A stretch of DNA of 11,172 bases from a virus (lineage: Duplodnaviria; Heunggongvirae; Uroviricota; Caudoviricetes). Each line of letters opens with the position of its first letter. The first letter of the stretch is position 1. The translations under genes and the position numbers were made by a program. The notes under the pieces were generated by a model that was not told the origin of the DNA, did no database searches, and worked only from the letters and a program-made list of their open reading frames with translations. Positions 1 to 11,172 of the stretch are shown here, in pieces. The stretch is taken from positions 1-11,172 of the IMG/VR virus record IMGVR_UViG_2778261217_000001; one strand, 5' to 3'.

Positions 1-1260
1 ATGAAGCTCAACGCCAGACAGGTCGAGACCGCAAAGCCAAAAGATAAAACCTACAAAATGGCCGATGGCGGCGGTTTATATCTTGAGGTTTCTGCAAAGG
101 GTTCTAAATACTGGCGCATGAAATACAGACGCCCCTCTGACAAAAAAGAGGATCGCCTCGCTTTTGGTGTTTGGCCTACCGTGACGCTTGCTCAGGCAAG
201 GGCAAAGCGTGATGAAGCTAAAAAGCTGTTAGTGCAGGGCATCGACCCAAAAGCCGAACAGAAAGAAGCTCAGGCCGTGAACTCGGGGGCATACACTTTC
301 GAAACTATCGCTCGTGAATGGCACGCCAGTAACAAGCGCTGGAGTGAAGACCATCGATCACGCGTTCTACGCTATCTTGAGCTTTATATTTTCCCCCATA
401 TCGGTTCGTCCGACATTCGGCAGCTTAAAACCAGCCACCTGTTAGCCCCGATTAAAAAAGTTGATGCCAGCGGCAAACACGATGTCGCTCAGCGCCTGCA
501 ACAGCGCGTCACGGCCATTATGCGTTATGCCGTACAGAATGATTACATCGACTCAAATCCAGCCAGCGATATGGCCGGTGCGCTATCGACAACCAAAGCG
601 CGACATTACCCGGCTTTACCTTCCAGCCGGTTCCCTGAGTTTCTTGCACATCTAGCTGCATATCGTGGCCGTGTAATGACACGGATCGCGGTCGAGCTTT
701 CCTTGCTAACTTTTGTGCGCTCCAGTGAGTTACGTTTCGCGCGTTGGGATGAATTCGACTTCGATAAATCTCTTTGGCGTATACCTGCAAAACGAGAAGA
801 AATTAAAGGCGTGCGTTATTCGTACCGAGGCATGAAGATGAAAGAGGAACATATCGTTCCGCTTAGTCGGCAGGCGATGATTTTATTGAATCAGTTAAAG
901 CAGATTAGTGGTGATAAAGAGCTGCTTTTTCCGGGGGATCACGACGCAACTAAGGTTATGAGTGAAAACACCGTAAACAATGCATTGCGTGCCATGGGTT
1001 ATGATACGAAAACTGAGGTCTGTGGGCATGGTTTTAGGACGATGGCGCGTGGTGCTTTGGGTGAGTCAGGGTTATGGAGTGATGATGCGATTGAGCGCCA
1101 GTTAAGCCACTCAGAACGTAACAATGTTCGTGCGGCGTATATTCATACTTCTGAGCATTTGGAAGAGCGTCGGCTTATGATTCAGTGGTGGGCTGATTAT
1201 TTGCAAGAGTGTTATAAAGGGCCAATAACGCCATACGAATTTGCAAAGAAATCTCAGTAG
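1..1260 (+). CDS. int: P4-type tyrosine integrase (site-specific recombinase)
   Basis: 419-aa ORF. N-terminus AKPKDKTYKMADGGGLYLEVSAKGSKYWRMKYR is typical of P4/CP4-57-type integrases; C-terminal catalytic motifs HGFRTMARG (H-x-x-R) and a tyrosine in AAYIHTSEH. ORF starts at window base 1, so no upstream tRNA/att context is visible. Confidence 0.9.
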   Translation: MKLNARQVETAKPKDKTYKMADGGGLYLEVSAKGSKYWRMKYRRPSDKKEDRLAFGVWPTVTLAQARAKRDEAKKLLVQGIDPKAEQKEAQAVNSGAYTFETIAREWHASNKRWSEDHRSRVLRYLELYIFPHIGSSDIRQLKTSHLLAPIKKVDASGKHDVAQRLQQRVTAIMRYAVQNDYIDSNPASDMAGALSTTKARHYPALPSSRFPEFLAHLAAYRGRVMTRIAVELSLLTFVRSSELRFARWDEFDFDKSLWRIPAKREEIKGVRYSYRGMKMKEEHIVPLSRQAMILLNQLKQISGDKELLFPGDHDATKVMSENTVNNALRAMGYDTKTEVCGHGFRTMARGALGESGLWSDDAIERQLSHSERNNVRAAYIHTSEHLEERRLMIQWWADYLQECYKGPITPYEFAKKSQ

Positions 1261-1280
1261 AAAACATAAAATCTATTAGT

Positions 1281-1296
1281 TGTGATAGATATCACT
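1281..1296. promoter_or_regulatory. CRP-like palindrome TGTGA-N6-TCACT upstream of the cargo operon (alternatively a weak int terminator stem)
   Basis: tgtgatagatatcact matches the CRP half-sites TGTGA / TCACA at 9 of 10 positions; perfect 6-bp inverted repeat gtgata/tatcac (1282..1287, 1290..1295); followed by a T-rich tract. Confidence 0.25.
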
Positions 1297-1406
1297 TTGT
1301 TTTTATTGAAATATAACGAGGTTTATGCATCATAGGGCATAGTGCAAGTATATAAATAGATAACAAGCTAATAATTTTTCAAGATAATTATATTAAGAGG
1401 TGTTTA

Positions 1407-1577
1407 ATGGAAGTTAACGTGGTCACCATTGTTTTGGGGGTGTGTTTGTTTGCTGCTATCGTTGCCGTGCCTGTATGGAAAATAAGCGCAAGATTTTTCT
1501 TCAAAGGAGGAGTAAAAAATAAACTCAAAAATGTTTCAATTAATGGCGATTATACTGGTCGAGATAAGAAAAATTAA
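1407..1577 (+). CDS. Small predicted membrane protein, 56 aa (not in ORF track)
   Basis: ATG at 1407 preceded by AAGAGG (1395..1400, 6-nt spacer). Translation MEVNVVTIVLGVCLFAAIVAVPVWKISARFFFKGGVKNKLKNVSINGDYTGRDKKN has one hydrophobic helix; ends in tandem stops TAA TAA. C-terminal 20 aa repeat the N-terminus of the next gene. Confidence 0.4.
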   Translation: MEVNVVTIVLGVCLFAAIVAVPVWKISARFFFKGGVKNKLKNVSINGDYTGRDKKN

Positions 1578-1652
1578 TAAGGCCATTGTATGGGTATTTT
1601 TAATAGGCTGAAAAATGTTTTTGTAAATGGTGATTATGTTGGAAGGGATAAA
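1509..1652 (+). repeat. In-frame imperfect tandem duplication (copies 1509..1568 and 1593..1652, offset 84 bp) spanning the end of the mini-ORF and the start of the 180-aa gene
   Basis: Peptide GVKNKLKNVSINGDYTGRDK versus GIFNRLKNVFVNGDYVGRDK (14/20 identical); the DNA copies align over about 46 bp at roughly 75% identity. Confidence 0.55.
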
Positions 1653-2132
1653 ATTGTCTATAATACAGAACCCACTCAGCTAATGCTATTGCAAGAGGAG
1701 TATCAGGAAGAGTTTAAAAATAGGCAAATTTGCACAGAAATGATTGATGAACTGAATCATTATAATACCAAAAAAAGTAAAGTGCGTGATTTGGAAGTTA
1801 AACTTAATGCTGCTGGGTACTCTTCCTTTCTTGACGAAGCTCGCGAGTTAAAAGAGTTGGTTTCGAAATTAATTATACAATATCAGCATTATCGCTCAGC
1901 ACAGAAAATAATCGCTTTTTTATTGTCAGACGTTCATTCAATTTTTCAATACAGAATAAAACCTCATATAGTAAATAAACAACAAGAGGCACAGATCCTT
2001 GAATTAATATATTTATATATAGAGTGTGAACTGAGTAGAAAGTTAGGTATAAATGCCTTGGAGATATATAATAGACAATTGCGTGGTATGGTTTTCTTCC
2101 TTACAGGAAACTGTCATTTGGAGTGGGAATAA
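1590..2132 (+). CDS. Hypothetical protein, 180 aa (cargo operon gene A; no recognisable motif)
   Basis: ORF in AT-rich island, same strand as and immediately after the mini-ORF; stop TAA overlaps the next start as TAATG (2130..2134). Confidence 0.6.
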   Translation: MGIFNRLKNVFVNGDYVGRDKIVYNTEPTQLMLLQEEYQEEFKNRQICTEMIDELNHYNTKKSKVRDLEVKLNAAGYSSFLDEARELKELVSKLIIQYQHYRSAQKIIAFLLSDVHSIFQYRIKPHIVNKQQEAQILELIYLYIECELSRKLGINALEIYNRQLRGMVFFLTGNCHLEWE

Positions 2133-2629
2133 TGTTATTATATAACAAGGCATTTGATATCAATCATACTATTCTAAGAATGTCTTCATGGCTGCTAAAT
2201 AGCTCTGAGCCGTTAATAAGTCTTGAGGGTATAAGAATATTTGACTTCTTAATAGCATTTCCTGAGTACATATCCAAGTTATCACTAGGGAAAGAATTAG
2301 TGAAGGAAAGAAATAAGTTCAAAAGGTTTTCTAACCCTTATAATGCTTTTGATCCTCAATCCTTGTTTCAGCAAATGGAAGGGGTGCAAAAATCTGCAAT
2401 TTGTTCTTTAGTAACAGCATCAGTTTTAGTAGAAATTAATAATGAATTATATGAAATAAAAAAAGATAAGTTATATGCGATTGGATTTACCAAAACCAAT
2501 CTTTTTGATAGCATAAACGAAGATGTGATCTCATTTATCAGTAACAATCTTGAGACATTACCTGTAACGGGAATAACTGGACTTAAGGCCGCTAGCAAAT
2601 TAATGAGTTTTAAATATGATCGTATATAA
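2132..2629 (+). CDS. Hypothetical protein, 165 aa (cargo operon gene B; ORF track starts it at GTG 2123)
   Basis: ATG at 2132 overlaps the upstream stop (TAATG); purine-rich ggagtggg at 2120..2127; 3' end overlaps the ATPase gene start by 14 nt. Confidence 0.6.
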   Translation: MLLYNKAFDINHTILRMSSWLLNSSEPLISLEGIRIFDFLIAFPEYISKLSLGKELVKERNKFKRFSNPYNAFDPQSLFQQMEGVQKSAICSLVTASVLVEINNELYEIKKDKLYAIGFTKTNLFDSINEDVISFISNNLETLPVTGITGLKAASKLMSFKYDRI

Positions 2630-4529
2630 TCCCACATTGAATATTAAAAAACTTTACGCATTCAAGGATGGTAAAGAGGTCATACACTTGAAGTTTCATA
2701 ATGGGCTGAATGTCATATATGGCTCGAACGGAAGCGGAAAAACCTCGGCAATTCAGTTACTCGCGTATGTTCTTGGTTCTACGATCTATAATTGGAAAGA
2801 AGAAGCAGGGAGTTGTGATTACGTTATAGCTGAAATTTACGCAAATGAGTCTACTATAACCATTCGTCGTGAGATAAGTGACACAATGGCAGGTATGAGC
2901 ATTTTTTTTGGTACATATGAAGAAAGTATCAAAGCAGGGAAAACTGGATGGTTTAGCTACCCCTACGCAATTTCTACTAACAAGGAAAGTTTTTCACAAC
3001 GTATCTTTGAAATCTTAAACATACCTGAGGCTAAATCTGACGGGATTAATAATCTTACTTTACATCAAATCCTAAGGCTGGTGTATAACAACCAATCTGA
3101 TTCTGCAACAAGTATATTTAACGACGAGAAGTTTGATTCCGCAATAAAACGAGAGTTTGTAAGTAATTATTTGCTCGGTTTGTATGATGATGATCTTTAT
3201 AATAATAAATTAGAGTATATTAAAAAAGAAAAAGAGCTAACAAAAACAATAGCTGAGTTAAAGGGTTTACTATTATTAATAGATGGTCAAGATCTTGATT
3301 TTAAATCTGATAATTTAGATAGCTTATCTGAACAATTACAGGGAAAGATCGATTCTATAATTGAAGAAATTGAAAAGTATAAAGAGTTAGATACACGGAT
3401 AAAATTTAGTAATGAAGTTAAGGCAATTAGTGCAGAACAATTAGTGAAGGATAAGAACAAGCTTATTGCCTTGGAGGTTGAATTAAGTCAAATACAATAT
3501 AATATTGTTGATTCAACCAAATTTATTGAAGAATTACAAAATAAATTACTTGCTATTAATGATTCAATTAAATTTAATAGTTCATTCAAGTTTAAAGAGT
3601 TCGATACCTGCCCATCATGTTTTACTAAGTTGCCAACTGCTCATGATGATAGTAAATGCTCTCTATGTGGTACAGAAGACCCGGATTCGGCAAAGCAAAT
3701 TAATTATGCTAGAATGAAAAATGAAATAATGATTCAAATCAACGAGTCACAAAATCTTTTGGAAAGGAATAAAATAAAGAGTGGTGAGATCTCAAAGCAA
3801 ATAAAATGCTTAAAAAGTGGAATGCGGAAAGAAGTTAACAAAGTTTCGGTTGTTAGTTCATCTTTGAATTCCCATGATGATAGCTTACTTTATAGTAAAT
3901 ATAAAGAGATTGGAGAGCTTGAAGAAAGACTAGATACTTTAGGTCGTATGGAGTCCGTTTATTCAAAAATTAAAACACTTCAGACTCTCCGCGATAGCTT
4001 ACAAGCCAGAGTTACATTTTTACAAGAAAACATTAGTAAAAAAGAACATGATCTTCAGTTAAAAATGCCAGCACTGAAAGAGAAAGTCAGTGAATATATG
4101 GAAGAAGTTTTAACTAAAGATGTCGAAAATATTGATGATCCTCATGATAAAGCTGAATTTAGTAACATAACTAGCATCGACTTTGATCTGGCTTCAAATA
4201 GGATTGTTGTCAATAATAAAGTCTCATTCTCTGAGAGCTCAATGTACTATCTTAATAATGCCCTGCATATAGCATTGCTAAAATTAAGTTTGGTTGATCC
4301 TAATGTAAGATTTCCACGTCTTTTAATTCTGGACGGTATAGAAAATGGTGGCATGGAAGATGCTCGCTCACAGGGTATCCAAAAAACTTTAAAAGAAATT
4401 TCTGATGAGTTTTGCGGGGTTCGGCATCAGATTATTATTACAACTAAAGGAATATACCATGCCGTTGATAATGATAAATATCGAGTTGGAGAAAAATTTA
4501 CTTCATCAAATCGTAGTTTAAATATGTGA
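2616..4529 (+). CDS. SMC/Rad50-like ABC ATPase, 637 aa (Walker A head, long coiled-coil, C-terminal Walker B-like segment)
   Basis: N-terminal LNVIYGSNGSGKTSAIQLLAYVLG (Walker A GSNGSGKT, SMC_N-like); long K/E/L/I-rich heptad-like middle containing CPSC-N13-CSLC (about 3609..3666); C-terminal FSESSMYYLNNALHIALL followed by RLLILDGIENGGMED (hydrophobic run ending in D, Walker B/D-loop-like). Confidence 0.8.
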   Translation: MIVYNPTLNIKKLYAFKDGKEVIHLKFHNGLNVIYGSNGSGKTSAIQLLAYVLGSTIYNWKEEAGSCDYVIAEIYANESTITIRREISDTMAGMSIFFGTYEESIKAGKTGWFSYPYAISTNKESFSQRIFEILNIPEAKSDGINNLTLHQILRLVYNNQSDSATSIFNDEKFDSAIKREFVSNYLLGLYDDDLYNNKLEYIKKEKELTKTIAELKGLLLLIDGQDLDFKSDNLDSLSEQLQGKIDSIIEEIEKYKELDTRIKFSNEVKAISAEQLVKDKNKLIALEVELSQIQYNIVDSTKFIEELQNKLLAINDSIKFNSSFKFKEFDTCPSCFTKLPTAHDDSKCSLCGTEDPDSAKQINYARMKNEIMIQINESQNLLERNKIKSGEISKQIKCLKSGMRKEVNKVSVVSSSLNSHDDSLLYSKYKEIGELEERLDTLGRMESVYSKIKTLQTLRDSLQARVTFLQENISKKEHDLQLKMPALKEKVSEYMEEVLTKDVENIDDPHDKAEFSNITSIDFDLASNRIVVNNKVSFSESSMYYLNNALHIALLKLSLVDPNVRFPRLLILDGIENGGMEDARSQGIQKTLKEISDEFCGVRHQIIITTKGIYHAVDNDKYRVGEKFTSSNRSLNM

Positions 4530-4539
4530 TTTTGAACAG

Positions 4540-4566
4540 GTGCGGCTTTAGCTGCACTTGTCTTTT
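4540..4566 (+). terminator. Candidate intrinsic terminator after the ATPase gene
   Basis: 7-bp stem gtgcggc/gctgcac (one G-U pair), loop ttta, then T-rich ttgtcttttg, 11 nt after the stop codon. Confidence 0.45.
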
Positions 4567-4761
4567 GAATAATAATATATCGCAATTATTAATTCCGTGT
4601 AACTTTATTATTGTCTATGTTATTTATAGATGTTGGCGTTATATTATCGGTCGATAATGGATTTGAGCTATTTTAGGTTAGTTAAAGTTGTTTTAAAAAT
4701 TCGATAAAGAAAATAATTTGATACTCACAAATCCTTTCTTAGCATACTTAAAGTACCTCTT

Positions 4762-4795
4762 ACGCGCGCAGCCCCGCCCGCCTGCCCGCTTCGCT
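4762..4795. other. GC-rich cos-like element (candidate packaging/cohesive-end site)
   Basis: acgcgcgcagccccgcccgcctgcccgcttcgc is an abrupt GC-rich block at the AT-rich island boundary; its reverse complement ggcgggcggggctgcgc resembles the P2/P4 cos end GGCGAGGCGGGGAAAGCAC as I recall it (partial match only). Confidence 0.25.
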
Positions 4796-4865
4796 TAACA
4801 GACTGGTTTTCATGCACCCCGTAAACCGTCTCAGAAGCCACCACACAAGGGCTTTCGCGTCAAAA

Positions 4866-4900
4866 ATGGCGCATGAGACTCATGCGTTTTCATGCGCCAT
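4866..4900. terminator. Nested palindrome / candidate bidirectional terminator or operator between convergent operons
   Basis: atggcgcatga (4866..4876) and tcatgcgccat (4890..4900) are perfect reverse complements; inner gcatgag-a-ctcatgc palindrome; A-run on the left and tttt inside. Confidence 0.35.
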
Positions 4901-4944
4901 AGATATGCACTCATACGCTCTCAGGCCAGCCAGGGAAAAGGCGT

Positions 4945-4969
4945 AAAAAATCCCGGTACTGGACCGGGA
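4945..4969 (-). terminator. Candidate intrinsic terminator of the sid-psu-delta operon
   Basis: Stem tcccggt/accggga (4951..4957, 4963..4969) with loop actgg; on the minus strand it is followed by TTTTTT (plus-strand aaaaaa 4945..4950); lies 23 nt past the delta stop. Confidence 0.45.
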
Positions 4970-4991
4970 CTTCGTGGTCGTATTTTGCTAA

Positions 4992-5264
4992 TCAGACAGG
5001 AATTTGCTGACGGTTTGACAGCTTTGACGCGGAGCCATAGCGATTGAGTGTTTGCTGTTGTTTTTCCGGTATTTTTGCTTTGTCTGATTCCTGTTCATTG
5101 CACTGAGGCTTCATAATGATCGTATCCACGCTTTCCAGTGCGGTAAATGTGCAGGAACATTCCAGATTCTGGCACTGATACCATGAGCGTTTAACCGACG
5201 GAGCTTCATAGGCGCTGGTTCTGGCGTGAGCGACCGCGCCACATTCAGGACACTTCAGGGCCAT
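4992..5264 (-). CDS. delta: Ogr/Delta-family zinc-finger late transcription activator, 90 aa (start moved to internal ATG)
   Basis: MALKCPECGAVAHARTSAYEAPSVKRSWYQCQNLECSCTFTALESVD carries the Ogr/Delta C-x2-C ... C-x4-C pattern. ATG at 5264..5262 is preceded by AAGGAG and sits 1 nt after the psu stop; the ORF-track start at 5366 would overlap psu by about 100 nt. Confidence 0.85.
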   Translation of the reverse strand: MALKCPECGAVAHARTSAYEAPSVKRSWYQCQNLECSCTFTALESVDTIIMKPQCNEQESDKAKIPEKQQQTLNRYGSASKLSNRQQIPV

Positions 5265-5265
5265 A

Positions 5266-5820
5266 TCAGCACACTCCTTTTTCATTAAGTCGGTTAAGGC
5301 GGGCCAGGAAAACTTTATGTTGTGCCGGGGTGAAACTGGCTGAAGCATCAGCGCGCATTGATGCATCCACCGTTAATCCGGTTTCGTCGATAATGCTCTT
5401 ATATGCTGCTGAAATTACCGGAGTACGGACTTCCGTTTGTCGGGCTACAGCGGTTCGTAATATTTTCATTGCCGCCTCAAGCCCGTATGGTGCACAAAGA
5501 AAAGGAGCCAGAGCGTCAGTGAGTGCATCACCATGCTCGCTCATGAAGTTTTCAGTTGCGCTTGTAACACAGCTTTCCAGCACAATCTGGTGAGCATAAA
5601 GACCATCCCGGGCGGCACAGTTAATCTGCCATTCGAGGAGTGCAAGACGCTCACGAAGATCCTCAAGTTGGCTGGCATATGCTGCGGGTTTTTCTTCAGT
5701 ATCCAGCAAAGCAGCCAGACGAAGCTGGCTGGTACTTTGCACATTACGTAGTGTCAGCCAGCTTTTTATTGCCGCGCGGTAATCGTTGAGAGCTTCCTGA
5801 GTAATGGTTCCGGTATTCAT
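5266..5820 (-). CDS. psu: Psu-like polarity suppression protein, 184 aa
   Basis: Size and motifs (EHGDALTDALAPFL, FTPAQHKVF) match my recollection of P4 Psu (about 190 aa); start ATG overlaps the sid stop (ATGA, 5817..5820). Confidence 0.75.
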   Translation of the reverse strand: MNTGTITQEALNDYRAAIKSWLTLRNVQSTSQLRLAALLDTEEKPAAYASQLEDLRERLALLEWQINCAARDGLYAHQIVLESCVTSATENFMSEHGDALTDALAPFLCAPYGLEAAMKILRTAVARQTEVRTPVISAAYKSIIDETGLTVDASMRADASASFTPAQHKVFLARLNRLNEKGVC

Positions 5821-6569
5821 TCCTTCTCGCCCCCTTTAGCCATGTCACGCTGTTTAAGCATCCGGGAACGTGCTGCAGGGCTGGGTGATTGTCTGGCATC
5901 CTGTATGGCTTTATCGTCCGCATAAATGCTGATCCCCGGCAGGGCAATATCATCCGTTGAAGATACGTTACAGAACAGTGCCGGAGTGGTGAGTTGCTCG
6001 CTGATAAATTGCTTCAGCACACTTTCGGGGTCGTTTACGGTATGAACTACACCGATAACAGAAGATGCGCTTCGGCCCAGAGTCATTTTCAGCAGTCCAA
6101 GGATCTGAATAAGTTTCTGGCCGTGTTCCTTCATAAACTCATTCCAGAGCCACACTGCATGAGTTTCAATCAGGTGATTATGTTCGCTGATGTAGCGGTT
6201 TGCAGCATCCGCAGTTTTCCATGGCAGGAATTCATTTTCTGCAGCCTGAGCAGCCAGCAAATCTTCGAACTCATCCAGTGTTTCGCGTCCGAGGGCGATT
6301 TCTGCCCGCAGTTTTTTCATTCGTGGCGTCATATTCCCCTGATTCTCACGAAACAGGTTTCGCCATTCATCATTAAGCGCCTGCGTCTCCGTTTTTGTAT
6401 CTTCCTGACGTTTACGGATAGTTTCAGTCATTGCAGCGGCTTCGGTTTGTTTTCGCCGTTCTTCCTGCCAGACAGCTTTTGCTGCCTTAACTTTTTCCAC
6501 CGCTTCGCGAATTTTCGGCGGGAGGGTGGGGGTAATGTTTGCATCAGAGATCTGGTTAACAGTTGTCAT
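5817..6569 (-). CDS. sid: Sid-like capsid size determination protein, 250 aa from ATG 6569 (ORF track starts it at TTG 6602)
   Basis: E/K/A/Q-rich helical protein at the head of the operon, coupled to psu; ATG at 6569 has GGAG with a 5-nt spacer, whereas 6602 is TTG without a Shine-Dalgarno. Assignment is by position and size; I do not recall a sequence motif for it. Confidence 0.5.
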   Translation of the reverse strand: MTTVNQISDANITPTLPPKIREAVEKVKAAKAVWQEERRKQTEAAAMTETIRKRQEDTKTETQALNDEWRNLFRENQGNMTPRMKKLRAEIALGRETLDEFEDLLAAQAAENEFLPWKTADAANRYISEHNHLIETHAVWLWNEFMKEHGQKLIQILGLLKMTLGRSASSVIGVVHTVNDPESVLKQFISEQLTTPALFCNVSSTDDIALPGISIYADDKAIQDARQSPSPAARSRMLKQRDMAKGGEKE

Positions 6570-6603
6570 GGCTGCTCCGGTAGTGTTTTGTTGTTGTGTC
6601 AAT

Positions 6604-6659
6604 TGTGCCGGGGTCCATACAAGCGCACTACCGAGGAGGATTGTGTCAGTGACTGAACA
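6604..6659 (-). promoter_or_regulatory. Two TGT-N12-ACA elements upstream of sid (candidate Delta/Ogr-responsive late promoter)
   Basis: tgtgccggggtccataca (6604..6621) and tgtgtcagtgactgaaca (6642..6659); TGT-N12-ACA is the consensus for Ogr/Delta-activated P2/P4 late promoters; the distal site centre is about 81 nt upstream of the sid ATG. Confidence 0.4.
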
Positions 6660-6726
6660 ATGACCTTGTTCTGGCTAGCCAGAGAAAGGTGTCATGTCTG
6701 ATCTATACGCTTCCTTTAATACATAC

Positions 6727-6930
6727 TATTCACTACTGTTCACTTCAATAAAAATATAGTAAATACATGTGGTTAAGTGGTGTAGTGTTTTAATTAAAGT
6801 GATCATCTACTGTTCATGACTGTTCACAGAGATAAAATTAAACATATATTTTTTTTTCATATAAGTCGCGATATTTATTTCAGTTTATTACTGGATCTTT
6901 TCTCCTCACCAATATTCACCAGTATTCAAT
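6727..6930. repeat. Iteron-like direct repeats in the AT-rich divergent region (candidate ori)
   Basis: Exact 8-mer actgttca three times in one orientation (6735..6742, 6809..6816, 6819..6826), plus tattcacc (6913..6920) and tattcaat (6923..6930); these resemble the P4 alpha-binding iteron TGTTCACC as I recall it. Confidence 0.35.
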
Positions 6931-7474
6931 ACATATTCTATGTAAAGAATAAAAGATGTCTTATGTCTGTTTAATAATTAAACATTCAACCTCCCTGCAC
7001 TCAGTTGCATTTCAGGAAAATATTCATAAAAATGAATTTGTCTGATGTTCATTAAACACATCCGGATACATGCGGAAGTAAGATGGTAATTTAATTTCTT
7101 TAATCATCGGATTTATTGATACATATGGTGAGCTGTTTATTTTTGGCCGTTTTTGGCTCTTTTATTAATCAGGTGTTGTCTTAGTGCTTATGATGTAACG
7201 CCCTGAATGATATGGGCTGGTTCAGATTTGAGCTGTGATCCTGCCTAGTGTAATAGACTTTTTTATTATTGATGCTCCTTATTATATTCCATAAAGGAAT
7301 TGTTTGTTTTTGTTCGTTTCATACGGTTTTTAGCTGTTTTATTTTTTGAGAAATCAACATTTCACACAAAATAAATAAAGCATGCGCGAGCCGCTTATAT
7401 AAACATAATAAGGAGCTACCTGAATCCGCATGGAATTGCCCGGACTGTTGTAAACATATTAGAGAGGTAGCCAG

Positions 7475-7735
7475 ATGAATAGTATTTCCGTTTCCACCCC
7501 GGCACCAGCTGCTCCGGTGCTCCCGGTTCCGGCTCAGCAGGAGCGCTTCATACGATTACCTGAAGTGATGCACCTTTGCGGGCTATCCCGTTCAACCATC
7601 TACGACCTTATCAGCCGCGATGCCTTCCCGCAGCAGATATCCCTGGGTGGAAAAAATGTGGCCTGGGTACAGTCGGAGGTCAGTGCATGGATGGCGGCGC
7701 GAATTGCTGCCCGCGAGCAAGGAGGCCATGCGTGA
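7475..7735 (+). CDS. alpA: AlpA-family (Vis-like) phage transcriptional regulator / excisionase-like DNA-binding protein, 86 aa
   Basis: [50 protein letters not shown] is the characteristic AlpA/MerR-like HTH core; SD gagg with 7-nt spacer before ATG 7475. Confidence 0.85.
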
Positions 7736-7770
7736 AACTTGCTTTGCAGTCTCATCTCCTTTTTTCTGGC

Positions 7771-7800
7771 TTGCGTCCTGATATCTTTTCCAGGTATAGT
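7771..7800 (+). promoter_or_regulatory. Candidate sigma70 promoter for the immunity/replication operon (PLE-like)
   Basis: TTGCGT (7771..7776), 18-nt spacer, TATAGT (7795..7800). Confidence 0.35.
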
Positions 7801-7830
7801 TTTCCCGCTGCCGCAAAATCGGCTGCCGGG

Positions 7831-7855
7831 CGTAGGAACCCGAGTTACTTATTGG
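7831..7855 (+). promoter_or_regulatory. seqA-like antisense target site (a/b boxes)
   Basis: gtaggaa (7832..7838) and cttattgg (7848..7855) are exact complements of ttcctac and ccaataag in the downstream antisense element. Confidence 0.4.
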
Positions 7856-7862
7856 CGACACC

Positions 7863-7885
7863 AGACGCGCCGTGCGTCTTTTTTT
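7863..7885 (+). terminator. Intrinsic terminator directly after the seqA-like site
   Basis: Stem agacgc/gcgtct (7863..7868, 7874..7879), loop gccgt, then seven T (7879..7885). Confidence 0.5.
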
Positions 7886-7949
7886 ACGTCGTTGCTCAGG
7901 CACACCCATTTTTCGGGCTGCGGTGCTTATACCTTAGCCCCTTTCAGAT

Positions 7950-8030
7950 AATGGTGGTCCGGGCGGGGCAGCCTTCGGGCTGGCCGGTTTCCAATAAGGC
8001 CGGTATTCCTACCCCCGTTCGGGTCACCAC
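7950..8030 (+). ncRNA. c4/CI-like antisense immunity RNA candidate (boundaries approximate)
   Basis: Structured GC-rich segment with a UUCG-loop hairpin (gggcagcc-ttcg-ggctggcc, 7966..7985) followed by ccaataag (7991..7998) and ttcctac (8006..8012), which pair with two bipartite target sites on the same strand; no plausible ORF. Confidence 0.4.
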
Positions 8031-8037
8031 CCATGAG

Positions 8038-8080
8038 CGTAGGAACTCCGGTGGTGGCATTTACCGCTACTTATTGGAGG
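8038..8080 (+). promoter_or_regulatory. seqC-like antisense target site overlapping the ribosome-binding site of the first small ORF
   Basis: gtaggaa (8039..8045) and cttattgg (8070..8077); the latter runs into GGAGG (8076..8080), the Shine-Dalgarno of the ATG at 8089. Confidence 0.4.
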
Positions 8081-8088
8081 TTGCCCTT

Positions 8089-8280
8089 ATGGCTACGATC
8101 CTCGCCCCGTCACATCCTCAATTTATATTTGTTTTTGCCGCCGTTCGTCGTGCAGAACGTAAACCACGTATCAGTATGCTGCGTATCATCGCCAGCAATG
8201 AGCATCATGCACGTCTTTCACTGGTCCATGAGTATGTGCTTTGTCTTGCTGCTCGCCTGCCTGTCCGGGAGGTGATCTAA
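8089..8280 (+). CDS. Small hypothetical protein, 63 aa (3' part of track ORF 7576..8280; first gene controlled by the antisense module)
   Basis: GGAGG with 8-nt spacer before ATG 8089; stop TAA overlaps the next start (TAATG 8278..8282); same RBS style as the two following ORFs. Confidence 0.4.
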
Positions 8281-8504
8281 TGAATCACGCCGCAATCTCT
8301 TATGACGATATTCTCCGCCTGAAGCATCTTCGTAACGTGGGAGAGTTTGTCACCGGAATGGCTGTTCTTCAGGATTGCTACGAAAAACCTGCCAGTGCTC
8401 AATGTGAACAACTGGTTTCCCTGATTTATCTGATGACAGAGCAGCTTGATGGCGTGGTACAGCGTTGCCAGGATGACCTCATGAACATGGAGGTGGTGCA
8501 ATGA
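8280..8504 (+). CDS. Small hypothetical protein, 74 aa (track ORF 8241..8504 trimmed to the ATG)
   Basis: GGAGG (8268..8272) with 7-nt spacer before ATG 8280; stop overlaps the next start as ATGA. Confidence 0.6.
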
Positions 8505-8824
8505 AATCACGTACTCTTTCCCTTTCACTTCGGGTAGCGTTGTATCGCCGCGCGGTAGCCTGCGCCTGGTTGAGTGCCTGCTATCAGCAAAACCGCCATC
8601 TGCAGCTCACTCTGGATGAAATTGAAACCGCTATTGCCCGTGAGCTTGAAGGATTTTATCTGCGACAGCACGGGCAAACAAAAGGCATGGAAATCGCCTG
8701 CGCCCTGCTTTCAGACCTGATGGAATACGGCCCTCTAATGTCCTGTCCCGCACTCTCCCAGCTCGGAATAGCCGTAATGGATGAGTTATGCGTCCGTCAC
8801 ATCAAAAAGCCGGTTTTACACTGA
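8501..8824 (+). CDS. Small hypothetical protein, 107 aa
   Basis: GGAGG (8489..8493) with 7-nt spacer; ATGA overlap with the upstream stop; ends 14 nt before the primase start. Confidence 0.6.
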
Positions 8825-8838
8825 GGGAGAACTGCGTC

Positions 8839-11172
8839 ATGTCAGGAATGAAAGTCAGTCAGGCCGTGAAGGCTGCCCGCGGTCACTGGGCTCAGATTCT
8901 GCCAGCGCTGGGCGTGAATATATTGAAAAATCGCCATCAGCCTTGCCCGGTCTGTGGCGGTAAAGATCGTTTTCGCTTCGACGATCAGGAAGGACGCGGA
9001 ACATGGTTCTGCAATCAGTGCGGAGCCGGGGATGGTTTAGCGCTTGTCACCAGGGCACTGAATGTGGATATCAGTGAAGCAGCTGACAGGATACATGGAC
9101 TGACACATGATCTGTCTATAGTTAATTCCGAGGTCAGGACGTTAACCGCCGATACCGATAGCGGGAAAGATGCAGCGGCAGCACTTGCCGCGCGACTGCT
9201 GCAAGCCTCGCGTGAATCTGCCGGAAACACTTATCTTACACATAAAGGTTTCCCGGAGCATATTTGCCATGAGCTGACTTCAGCTCATAAGGCCGGTGGT
9301 GTGATGTTCCGCCCCGGTGATTTGATCGTCCCACTCTATAACGCTGACGGGGAGCTGGTGAATATTCAGCTTATCAGTGGCAATGGTAGCAAGTGTTTTC
9401 TTAAAGGAGGTCAGGTTAAGGAGGCCTATCATCTGATAGAAGGGGGCGGGAGTTCTGTAAGAAGGATTTGGATTGCGGAAGGTTACGCCACGGCGCTTAC
9501 CATTCATTATTTGACAGGAGAAGCCGTCATGGTGGCATTTTCGTCGGTCAACTTTCTTTCTCTGAGCAGCGTTGCCCATAATAAGTATCCTGGATATCAG
9601 TTAATTATTGCAGCGGACCGCGATCTGAATGGTTCAGGCCAGAACAGGGCTGAAACTGCTGCAAAAGCGAGTCAGTGTGACATTGTGCTGCCACCGGTTT
9701 TTGGTGACTGGAATGATGCGCTTACCCAATACGGAGAGGAATCCACCAGGACGGCAATTCTTGAGGCTTTGAAGCCACATAACGCCAGTCCTTTCGACAC
9801 AATGAGTGAAGCAGAATTCACAGCGATGAGTGTCAGCGAAAAAGCTCAGAGGGTTCGGGAGCATTACAGGGATGCACTGGCGGTTGATTCGAACGGGCAG
9901 CTTTTATCCCGCTACGAGTCTGGAGCGTGGAAAGTTATTTCTCAGTCAGATTTTGCCCGAGATGTCGCAGCCCTTTTCCAGCGCCTCGGGGCACCGTTTT
10001 CCTCAGGAAAAATTGCCTCACTGGTGGAAACATTAAAGTTAATTGTTCCGCAGCAGCAAAATCCGTCACGTCATCTGATTGGTTTTCGTAATGGCGTTCT
10101 CGATACGCGAACAGGGCTTTTTAGTCCGCACTGTAAAGAGAACTGGCTGCGTACCCTGTGTGAAGTCGATTTCACGCCACCGGTAAAGGGGGAAACGCTT
10201 GAAACTCATGCCCCGGCATTCTGGCGTTGGCTGGACCGGGCCGCCGGACACAAGCCAGCAAAACGCGACATTATTCTTGCAGCGTTATTTATGGTGCTGG
10301 CGAACCGCTATGACTGGCAGCTCTTTCTGGAAGTGACTGGCCCTGGTGGAAGTGGCAAAAGTATTCTGGCTGAAATTGCGACCATGCTTGCTGGAGAGGA
10401 TAACGCCACCTCTGCGACCATTGAAACGCTGGAGTCCCCGCGAGAACGTGCGGCTCTGATAGGTTTTTCTCTTATTCGCCTGCCTGATCAGGAGAAGTGG
10501 AGCGGCGACGGCGCCGGGCTTAAGGCTATAACTGGTGGCGATGCAGTATCTGTGGACCCCAAATATCAGAATGCTTATTCAACACATATTCCGGCGGTTA
10601 TCTTGGCCGTAAATAATAATCCTATGCGCTTCACTGATCGCAGTGGTGGTGTGTCCCGCAGGAGAGTTATTCTGCATTTTCCTGAGCAGATAGCACCGGA
10701 AGAACGCGATCCGCAGTTGAAAGATAAAATTGCACGAGAACTGGCTGTGATTGTTCGTCAGCTCATGCAGCGTTTCAGCGATCCGATGAGCGCCAGAACA
10801 TTGCTTCAGTCGCAGCAGAATTCTGATGAGGCTCTCACCATCAAGCGTGATGCTGATCCAGCATTTGATTTTTGTGGCTACCTTGAGGCATTACCTGACA
10901 CCAACGGCATGTTTATGGGGAACGCCAATATTGTCCCGCGCCAGCCACGTACGTACCTTTACCATGCCTATCTTGTATACATGGAGGCTAATGGCTTTAA
11001 AAATACCCTTAGCCTGACAATGTTTGGCAAAGGGCTACCAGTTATGCTGAAGGAATACGGGCTAAATTATGAGAAGCGGCGAACTAATCAGGGAATGCAG
11101 ACTAACCTCACTTTAAAAGAGGAAAGTAATGCAGACTGGCTTCCCAAGTGTGATGAGCCAACAATCAAATAA
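8839..11172 (+). CDS. alpha: P4 alpha-type primase/helicase, 777 aa (start moved to ATG 8839)
   Basis: N-terminal zinc-binding motif CPVCGGKDRFRFDDQEGRGTWFCNQCG; acidic TOPRIM-like region (IIAADRD); Walker A VTGPGGSGKSILAEIA in the C-terminal half; SD gggaga at 8825..8830. The 777-aa length equals P4 alpha as I recall it. Confidence 0.9.
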   Translation: MSGMKVSQAVKAARGHWAQILPALGVNILKNRHQPCPVCGGKDRFRFDDQEGRGTWFCNQCGAGDGLALVTRALNVDISEAADRIHGLTHDLSIVNSEVRTLTADTDSGKDAAAALAARLLQASRESAGNTYLTHKGFPEHICHELTSAHKAGGVMFRPGDLIVPLYNADGELVNIQLISGNGSKCFLKGGQVKEAYHLIEGGGSSVRRIWIAEGYATALTIHYLTGEAVMVAFSSVNFLSLSSVAHNKYPGYQLIIAADRDLNGSGQNRAETAAKASQCDIVLPPVFGDWNDALTQYGEESTRTAILEALKPHNASPFDTMSEAEFTAMSVSEKAQRVREHYRDALAVDSNGQLLSRYESGAWKVISQSDFARDVAALFQRLGAPFSSGKIASLVETLKLIVPQQQNPSRHLIGFRNGVLDTRTGLFSPHCKENWLRTLCEVDFTPPVKGETLETHAPAFWRWLDRAAGHKPAKRDIILAALFMVLANRYDWQLFLEVTGPGGSGKSILAEIATMLAGEDNATSATIETLESPRERAALIGFSLIRLPDQEKWSGDGAGLKAITGGDAVSVDPKYQNAYSTHIPAVILAVNNNPMRFTDRSGGVSRRRVILHFPEQIAPEERDPQLKDKIARELAVIVRQLMQRFSDPMSARTLLQSQQNSDEALTIKRDADPAFDFCGYLEALPDTNGMFMGNANIVPRQPRTYLYHAYLVYMEANGFKNTLSLTMFGKGLPVMLKEYGLNYEKRRTNQGMQTNLTLKEESNADWLPKCDEPTIK

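Follow-up and report, generated by a model that had tools for sequence, protein, structure and literature searches.

The window analysed here is an 11,172-nucleotide (nt) stretch of DNA, positions 1 to 11,172 of IMG/VR record IMGVR_UViG_2778261217_000001, and its source element is a P4-like satellite in E. coli. The open reading frame (ORF) at 2616-4529 most likely encodes LmuB, the sensing component in a short (type II) Lamassu/ABC-three-component (ABC-3C) anti-phage system; we put the probability of this assignment at roughly 80%. It is the last gene of a four-gene operon that is carried as cargo within the int-psu hotspot of the satellite, in the order small transmembrane (TM) protein, LmuA (CTD9), LmuC (MC5), LmuB, with adjacent genes overlapping or abutting. 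The four genes and the LmuB motifs discussed below are as follows (aa, amino acids).

1407-1577, plus strand: small single-pass membrane protein, 56 aa, with a TM helix at about residues 5-23 (nt 1419-1475) and a basic tail
1590-2132, plus strand: short LmuA, 180 aa, with Pfam CTD9 at residues 67-179 (E = 6e-29)
2132-2629, plus strand: LmuC, ABC-3C middle component 5, 165 aa (Pfam MC5, E = 2e-31)
2616-4529, plus strand: probable LmuB, an SMC/Rad50-like ABC ATPase of the short Lamassu type, 637 aa, ATG start
2721-2744, plus strand: Walker A motif (P-loop) GSNGSGKT, LmuB residues 36-43, with G36, N38, G41, and K42 invariant
3609-3668, plus strand: apical four-cysteine element CPSC(332-335)-N12-CSLC(348-351), LmuB residues 332-351, inside the non-helical turn 327-356
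4227-4241, plus strand: degenerate ABC signature FSESS, LmuB residues 538-542 (clade consensus F-S-[EA]-S-[SG])
4320-4334, plus strand: Walker B motif LLILD, LmuB residues 569-573, with D573 invariant and followed by G574

The initial annotation had described a 637-aa ORF at this place with GSNGSGKT at residues 36-43, which agrees with our check of the sequence, and had read its product as an SMC-like ATPase, which is borne out by ABC ATPase matches in Pfam, PADLOC, and PDB profile searches. Pfam AAA_23 and the N-terminal region of SMC_N match the protein, and PADLOC LmuB models match it with E = 8e-35 (residues 8-623), 2e-33, and 2e-32. A single-sequence phmmer search of the PDB gave only P-loop matches to PtuA and SMC; with a 36-sequence profile, the best PDB match was LmuB of Salmonella enterica (9hqu_A, from a cryo-electron microscopy Lamassu complex) with E = 4e-8. 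A Foldseek search of the PDB with the AlphaFold2 model is led by LmuB chains 9a6c, 9hqu, 9hqx, 9uxh, 9nyg, and 9ux7 (E = 5e-19 to 1e-12), which stem from five independent Lamassu structures, and Rad50, Smc, Smc5/6, and JetC rank lower.

In that model (mean predicted local distance difference test score, pLDDT, 83; predicted template-modelling score, pTM, 0.63) the ABC head is split by two antiparallel arms, and the middle region that had been called heptad-like consists of long helices, ascending at 192-223, 231-260, and 273-326 and descending at 357-416 and 420-500. These form coiled-coil arms of ~135 residues. Low-confidence helix breaks at 261-272 and 417-419 (nt ~3396-3431 and ~3864-3872) lie where Salmonella LmuB has its folding point FP1 (266-276 and 416-432; bioRxiv 10.1101/2025.03.14.643221), and the model thereby suggests that arm-folding geometry is conserved between the two proteins. 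Several features by which an LmuB is recognised are present, namely similarity to LmuB, a Walker A head split by coiled coil in a chain of ~600-650 aa, and operon partners from the CTD1-12 (LmuA) and MC1-8 (LmuC) series. Like other short Lamassu LmuBs (Salmonella LmuB 9hqu/9hqx and Ec-Lipase of PMC12663957), which have ~630-660 aa, an LmuA/LmuC operon, and an apical CxxC, this one has a head split by a ~20 nm antiparallel coiled coil, a mid-arm folding point, and a deviant Walker B. The DNA-end or DNA-structure sensing that was initially proposed for it has been shown for Lamassu LmuB by cryo-electron microscopy and biochemistry (PMC12663957; bioRxiv 10.1101/2025.03.14.643221, 10.1101/2025.06.23.660979).

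Conservation was judged from an alignment of 36 LmuB homologues with 26-84% identity. A scan of a genome collection found relatives in 321 species-level genomes from many phyla, from which 80 loci were retrieved, and a third homology search, with alignment, returned the same clade again plus two outliers. The LmuB/LmuC/LmuA layout is repeated in 83-84 of 85 related loci. RefSeq names the identical E. coli gene 'AAA family ATPase', and with our assignment this gains a named function, that of a Lamassu DNA sensor. One homologue (P0014, 42% identity) is named 'predicted amidophosphoribosyltransferase' in one source; since ComF-type proteins carry an N-terminal zinc ribbon, the name was probably transferred in error on account of the Cys4 motif, and database names for the LmuB family are unreliable.

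It is hardly credible that the protein is instead a Rad50/SbcC-type DNA-repair ATPase, serving housekeeping or phage recombination and not defence sensing, although a kinship with that family is visible. NCBIfam gives sub-threshold P-loop matches, to Rad50, SMC, and RecF only; Rad50 structures occur among the fold-search matches; and LmuB is itself thought to descend from SbcC (PMC12663957). As in the Rad50/SbcC hook (P. furiosus Rad50, 1l8d), an antiparallel coiled coil extends from an ABC head and bears cysteines at its apex, and the role is in DNA-end sensing. However, the equivalog models score 23.7 and 19.2 bits where their cut-offs are 1000 and 700, and the 23.7-bit match spans ~33 residues. 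LmuB structures are ahead of Rad50 by at least six orders of magnitude in Foldseek E-value, the gene lies in a satellite defence hotspot, and its partners are CTD9 and MC5 proteins, with no Mre11/SbcD gene in the operon or the window. In Rad50 each chain contributes a single CxxC and the zinc is shared by two chains, whereas here there are four cysteines per chain in a 30-residue insert; Rad50 also has an Mre11/SbcD nuclease partner and much longer arms, and our protein has neither, its arms not reaching >200 residues. Orthology to Rad50/SbcC was rejected on family score, on the Mre11/SbcD partner, and on the single CxxC per chain. A canonical SMC protein (Smc, MukB, JetC), in which a globular hinge at the apex mediates dimerisation and the partners are kleisin and KITE/HAWK proteins, was likewise rejected: the apex is a 30-residue cysteine loop and not a hinge, and SMC and JetC structures rank below both LmuB and Rad50.

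The nucleotide-binding site can be aligned with those of characterised Lamassu sensors. K42 in Walker A is the counterpart of K40 in Salmonella LmuB and K42 in Ec-Lipase LmuB, which are needed for defence (bioRxiv 10.1101/2025.03.14.643221 and PMC12663957, respectively). The initial annotation saw no canonical LSGGQ and suspected a degenerate equivalent. Both points hold: the sequence is without LSGG, and FSESS takes the place of the signature, with S539 and S541 invariant in the 36-sequence alignment and S541 aligned by HMMER (to 9hqu_A) with S536 of Salmonella LmuB. The substitution S536R in that protein abolishes head engagement and defence (bioRxiv 10.1101/2025.03.14.643221). The C-terminal hhhhD segment, also noted at the outset, is LLILD.

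From its Asp onward the Walker B motif of the clade reads D-[GN]-[IMV]-E-[DN]-[GK]-G, and the 36 sequences have G (20), N (15), or T (1) at position 574. No catalytic Glu/Gln follows the Walker B Asp, the Glu being absent from other LmuBs too, and there is no H-loop histidine. The published Walker B pattern of short LmuBs is hhhhD[Q/S/T/E] (PMC12663957), and the G or N found here after the Asp lies outside that set. We regard this as a variant of the feature and no ground for exclusion from the family, but it does tell against our assignment to the extent that ATPase behaviour may differ from that of the solved systems. Because Walker A and the signature serines are intact, Walker B has no Glu/Gln, and the H-loop histidine is missing, the sequence predicts a site suited to ATP binding and head engagement with little turnover. 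The turnover of Salmonella LmuACB with DNA is ~1 ATP per minute (bioRxiv 10.1101/2025.03.14.643221).

The apex of the coiled coil carries two CxxC motifs in one chain, as first described; their spacer was then given as 13 residues and is in fact 12 (336-347). Their proposed position at the coiled-coil apex is supported by the AlphaFold2 monomer, which puts the cysteine cluster in the sole non-helical turn and not in the head, and an apex-only model gives the same topology. LmuB has seven cysteines in total, and four of them falling within 20 residues would be seen in ~0.3% of random placements. C332, P333, C335, C348, and C351 are invariant in 36/36 homologues, down to 26% identity, and a CPxC-N10-14-CxLC pair occurs at the same place in all 81 of 81 related LmuB loci; a Streptomyces protein at 20% identity has CPSC-N14-CSMC. 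The pair is kept both with short LmuA (64 loci) and with an LmuA of ~400 aa that combines an alpha/beta-hydrolase domain with CTD9 (16 loci), so the double CxxC is a trait of the CTD9/MC5-type LmuB clade and not of the effector type. As such it is invariant across the whole clade, which occurs in at least 321 species-level genomes, and it elaborates on the zinc hook of the Rad50 type.

Zinc hooks of LmuB ('CPxCG or similar') were described in PMC10586767, and that of Salmonella LmuB is needed for defence (bioRxiv 10.1101/2025.03.14.643221). Short LmuBs have zero, one, or two copies of CxxC and 'may employ divergent dimerization strategies' (PMC12663957, PNAS 2025); the present protein has two, at its modelled apex. 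The double CxxC in short LmuB is therefore already in the literature (PMC12663957), and our protein is a member of a known family with a known but structurally uncharacterised apex variant. The solved Lamassu structures include no double-CxxC LmuB, since Salmonella LmuB has one CxxC and V. cholerae LmuB none. The V. cholerae protein nevertheless forms a dimeric complex (PMC12663957), so the hook is dispensable for dimerisation in short LmuBs. The structural papers raise the question of how dimerisation and partner docking work in short LmuBs that have zero, one, or two CxxC, and this clade bears on it.

As to how the four cysteines are used, we lean towards a single zinc held by all four thiols of one chain in a zinc-ribbon-like knuckle. 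The apical insert of ~30 residues, the flanking beta-bridges, the spacing, and the dimerisation of hookless LmuB are the reasons for this preference. Single-residue beta-bridges at 331/338 and 347/354 bracket each CxxC in both models, which is the pattern of two zinc knuckles as modelled, and the 10-14-residue spacing between the CxxC motifs is that of Cys4 zinc ribbons. Local Foldseek matches of the apex are to RanBP2/NZF Cys4 zinc ribbons with CxxC-N10-CxxC spacing, at a non-significant E = 1-6. The apex-only fold search gave no significant match, the best full-length one being the Rad50 zinc hook 1l8d (E = 0.4). It is less probable, and on balance unlikely, that each CxxC pairs with its counterpart on a second LmuB so that two zinc ions staple the dimer. 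In favour of such a double hook, Rad50 and single-hook LmuB have canonical hooks that form between chains, Salmonella LmuB needs its hook for defence, the variation in copy number was interpreted in PMC12663957 as 'divergent dimerization strategies', and 1l8d is the closest full-length fold. On the other hand, two CxxC only 10-14 residues apart on one chain favour chelation of a single ion, the monomer models fold each as a knuckle-like turn, the insert far exceeds a hook turn, and short LmuBs without any hook still dimerise.

Some results pull against this picture of the apex. The models are of the monomer, contain no zinc, and have moderate confidence at the cysteine turn (pLDDT 60-77), and they do not decide between intrachain and interchain coordination. 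Alignments also differ on which CxxC matches a single hook: HMMER puts the Salmonella hook CPMCG on the second, and hhalign (probability 98) puts the single CPVC of the outlier P0223 on the first and leaves the second gapped. The invariant proline favours the first CxxC, which may be the ancestral hook. A knuckle held within one chain would rigidify the apex, and it would plausibly form part of the docking surface for CTD9 and MC5, because LmuC and the LmuA C-terminal domain dock hook-proximally in solved complexes.

The partner genes are named in RefSeq 'ABC-three component system protein' (LmuA) and 'ABC-three component system middle component 5' (LmuC). LmuC starts at ATG 2132 according to RefSeq, and its homologues begin MLLYNKAFD; the mechanical ORF call began at GTG 2123. 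It overlaps both the LmuA stop and the LmuB start. LmuA differs from its counterparts in short Lamassu systems with effectors, as it has no enzymatic domain and is accompanied by a fourth gene, that of the small TM protein. Its residues 1-66, where LmuA proteins otherwise carry an effector domain such as a nuclease, lipase, Sir2, or protease, have no domain match in Pfam, NCBIfam, or PADLOC. One published Lamassu clade has 'seemingly lost the effector domain' (PMC12663957), and this LmuA matches that clade; we tentatively place it in 'Clade O' from the published description only. The published effector-less sets, also compared by description only, similarly have full-length LmuB and LmuC with an LmuA that is little more than its C-terminal domain, and they occur in many species, including in P4-like satellite hotspots. 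Those descriptions, supplements aside, mention no upstream membrane protein or shared motif, and more generally the Lamassu papers, apart from their supplements and the founding ABC-3C paper, make no mention of a membrane gene.

The short form of LmuA is the common one. It is found at 64 of the 80 loci, against 16 with long LmuA, and an exhaustive phmmer search with LmuA found 408 cluster representatives, of which almost all of the best 150 have 177-214 aa. The long relatives are of the lipase type (alpha/beta-hydrolase domain plus CTD9) and have the same LmuB and LmuC types, and our LmuB shares its clade with those of the lipase-CTD9 Lamassu systems.

The 56-aa TM protein is labelled a hypothetical protein in RefSeq and has no Pfam, NCBIfam, or PADLOC match. 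Its tail ends in KLKNVSINGDYTGRDK (residues 39-54, nt 1521-1568), and this repeats the motif near the LmuA N-terminus, RLKNVFVNGDYVGRDK (residues 6-21, nt 1605-1652). Both ORFs use one reading frame, with TAA TAA and 12 nt between them. Brenneria has the same four-gene layout, with an LmuB 84% identical to ours, and so has a Pseudomonas-type contig (LmuB 41% identical). Comparison of the small ORF with that of Brenneria gives nucleotide identities of 0.89/0.96/0.55 by codon position, which is a coding signature. A word-based homology search with the protein found only close enterobacterial relatives, and an iterated hidden Markov model drifted onto LmuA N-termini through the shared motif and was replaced by positional and regular-expression analysis. 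For this, a fitting small ORF was defined as one of 50-90 aa with a TM helix and the tail G-[DNS]-x-x-[GAV]-[RGK]-[DN], ending next to the LmuA start.

Such an ORF is present in 50 of 64 short-LmuA loci and in 0 of 16 long (lipase) LmuA loci (Fisher p = 5e-9), and a further six short-LmuA loci have one with a variant motif. As a control, 52 of 1,722 small ORFs over all loci fit the definition, and 50 of these are at the expected position. The median gap between small ORF and LmuA is 3 nt. The two copies of the motif co-vary: alignment scores average 57.1 within a locus and 34.4 between loci (permutation p <= 1e-4), and in 32 loci the true partner ranks 1-3 of 58. Their amino-acid identity is 67%, and their nucleotide identity is 0.73/0.81/0.41 by codon position. 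Gene conversion as the source of the likeness was rejected on the third codon positions, only 41% of which are identical; locus L042 is an exception. Natural fusions of the TM protein to LmuA, sought as Rosetta-stone evidence, were not found, and CTD9 proteins of intermediate length (205-254 aa) have non-hydrophobic extensions. The mean number of Lys plus Arg is 3.8 beyond the TM helix and 0.8 ahead of it, a pattern seen in 48 of 51 loci, and by the positive-inside rule the protein is predicted to be N-out, C-in, so that the tail with the motif is cytoplasmic.

The small TM protein is thus probably a functional fourth component that stands in place of the missing effector domain and is coupled to LmuA through the motif, a judgement that draws on comparison of sequences. 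We think it very unlikely that the operon is what is left of a lipase-type Lamassu that has lost its effector and is decaying, with small ORF and motif as functionless leftovers. Such decay would fit the existence of lipase-CTD9 LmuA relatives with the same LmuB and LmuC types and the published clade that lost its effector domain. It would also fit a report that weighs against our account of the operon more generally, in which a 'Lamassu missing a known effector' from a P4 hotspot, which may or may not be the present system, gave no protection against 28 phages (PMC13586616). But the short form is in the majority by both counts given above, all four genes are intact across phyla, and the small ORF bears its coding signature. 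The motif pair is, moreover, held at the protein level (third codon positions 41% and second 81% identical), and the small ORF is closely linked to LmuA and occurs strictly with its short form. The small gene is also easily omitted from cloned constructs and from DefenseFinder and PADLOC system definitions, and its omission could explain negative defence assays.

What the TM protein would do is suggested by the way in which LmuA acts, through release and oligomerisation driven by its C-terminal domain (bioRxiv 10.1101/2025.03.14.643221, 10.1101/2025.06.23.660979). Because of this mode of action, templating from clustered LmuA N-termini is mechanistically natural, and we tentatively raise the possibility, by analogy, that the output of the 'effector-less' clade is the TM protein activated by motif-to-motif templating. 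In such a scheme LmuB and LmuC would sense invader DNA, LmuA would be released, with the four-cysteine apex being part of the release switch, and CTD9 oligomerisation would cluster the N-terminal G-[GD]-D-x-x-G-[RG]-D motifs. Once clustered, these would nucleate a beta-sheet, amyloid-like, or beta-solenoid assembly, and this would recruit the identical motif on the TM protein tail, bundle the TM helices, and permeabilise the inner membrane.

A somewhat doubtful alternative is that the TM protein is a membrane anchor and not a killer, tethering LmuA, and with it LmuACB, at the inner membrane where phage DNA enters; the lethal output would then lie elsewhere, for example in clamping of DNA by LmuB/LmuC or in a host factor. 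The predicted topology with a cytoplasmic motif-bearing tail and the motif common to that tail and the LmuA N-terminus would suit an anchor equally, and with only ~50 residues from the TM start to the end of the protein there is no recognisable toxic domain. Yet the N-terminal position of LmuA holds the effector in every characterised Lamassu (PMC10586767, PMC12663957), and the TM gene appears exactly where the effector domain is absent. Single-pass membrane proteins whose toxicity is driven by oligomerisation are also established abortive-infection effectors, the closest precedent being Bab (bioRxiv 10.1101/2024.11.07.622273).

The arrangement of TM protein and LmuA resembles the amyloid-signalling pairs, namely the anti-phage system Bab/Agp (BASS11) of E. 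coli (bioRxiv 10.1101/2024.11.07.622273) and the Bell-BASS/NLR pairs (bioRxiv 10.1101/2020.01.06.895854). In those systems also, adjacent collinear genes lie in a defence island or prophage hotspot, the product of the upstream one is small and has a hydrophobic helix at its N-terminus and a motif of ~15-20 residues at its C-terminus, the downstream sensor-side protein opens with the same motif, and the motifs co-vary between lineages. Collinear genes with matching, co-varying motifs are what we find here; an NLR/STAND or TPR sensor and a Bell/HeLo-like effector domain are not found. The downstream protein is instead LmuA, the CTD9 adaptor of an SMC-like complex, and the small protein carries a genuine TM helix and lacks a Bell or 'Babybell' globular domain. 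The motif here is a charged one, G-[GD]-D-x-x-G-[RG]-D-[KN]. Neither of the two papers mentions Lamassu, ABC, or SMC systems. If templating through the motif is true, it joins two fields that have been unlinked, SMC-type immune sensors and amyloid-like signalling.

By homology with the solved Lamassu complexes, in which LmuB senses DNA ends, LmuC and the LmuA C-terminal domain dock at the apex, and LmuA is released and oligomerises (bioRxiv 10.1101/2025.03.14.643221; PMC12663957; bioRxiv 10.1101/2025.06.23.660979), the whole system may work as follows. Two LmuB chains would pair along their coiled-coil arms, and LmuC and the C-terminal domain of one LmuA would dock near the apex, keeping LmuA sequestered. 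ATP-dependent head engagement would clamp DNA ends or replication-derived structures of an invader, and freed LmuA would self-associate through its C-terminal domain and trigger an abortive-infection effector. The upstream TM protein would be the probable output, as effector or as membrane partner tied to LmuA by the shared motif. A defensive role is consistent with the place of the operon in a satellite defence hotspot and with the activity of related Lamassu systems in the literature. We consider the system probably to be a new variant, a four-gene Lamassu with a separate membrane protein output linked by a paired motif. For the effector-less Lamassu clade, the conserved membrane gene with its co-varying motif offers a concrete candidate for the agent of killing or arrest.

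A comparable locus is the Domainator 'Lamassu-var' (NZ_CP038295.1 4116517-4120474; PMC11754643), for which weak activity against T-even phages was shown experimentally. Located on a satellite of another type, it too is an operon between int and delta/psu with a short LmuA and a separate small gene 5' of it. Identity of our locus with 'Lamassu-var' was rejected, since the latter has CTD6, MC2, and a split LmuB (394 + 188 aa); its short LmuA, in our retrieved copy of the locus (L086, 2700-5975), is a CTD6 protein of 205 aa. The upstream protein of 'Lamassu-var' is soluble, 138 aa long, and Mrr-like with a GDKGRD motif, and it lacks a TM helix as well as a shared motif. It may be a recurrent theme that effector and LmuA C-terminal domain are encoded separately.

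The remaining features of the window are those of the satellite and of the borders of the cargo.

1-1260: integrase, a P4-like satellite backbone gene
1306-1333 and 1360-1388, plus strand: two sigma-70-like promoter candidates by consensus match, 5' of the first cargo gene
4536-4561, plus strand: intrinsic-terminator-like hairpin with T-run, 11-bp stem with six GC pairs, from a consensus scan
4992-5366, minus strand: Ogr/Delta, with its zinc-finger domain intact in the window
5266-5820, minus strand: Psu
5817-6602, minus strand: sid-like gene, Psu-related
7807-7884: isrK RNA, Rfam match above the gathering score (72 bits)
7947-8034: C4 antisense RNA, Rfam match above the gathering score (83 bits)
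8788 onwards: alpha primase-helicase

The cargo therefore lies between the integrase and the psu/delta/sid genes, and this int-psu interval is a known defence hotspot in P4-like satellites (PMC9122126, PMC13586616). The isrK and C4 RNAs mark an immunity and regulatory RNA region typical of such satellites. The number of promoter candidates in the region is not above shuffle expectation, so that their position is a weak hint, and the hairpin, 7 nt past the LmuB stop, is the probable end of the operon. The cargo has ~31% GC (29-37% over window positions 1300-4700), against ~50% in the flanks and satellite backbone, and all four of its genes are on one strand with a consistent positive GC skew; the low GC and uniform skew indicate that it was acquired recently, by horizontal transfer from a low-GC source.

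Among 5,426 complete E. coli genomes, 9 carry the cargo at 99.9-100% identity. In a chicken E. coli isolate (NZ_CM160084.1, 4331773-4335950) an otherwise identical Lamassu cargo is split by IS1B, so that the match falls into two pieces with a span ~777 nt longer than the query. In NZ_AP024561.1 a tRNA-Leu gene adjoins the element, and Ogr/Delta is a truncated pseudogene according to RefSeq (12605-13358 of our retrieved locus L085, against 4700-5366 in the window). There psu is ~163 nt nearer the cargo than in the window, and we infer from these coordinates that strains with the same cargo differ by an insertion or deletion at the cargo/delta junction.

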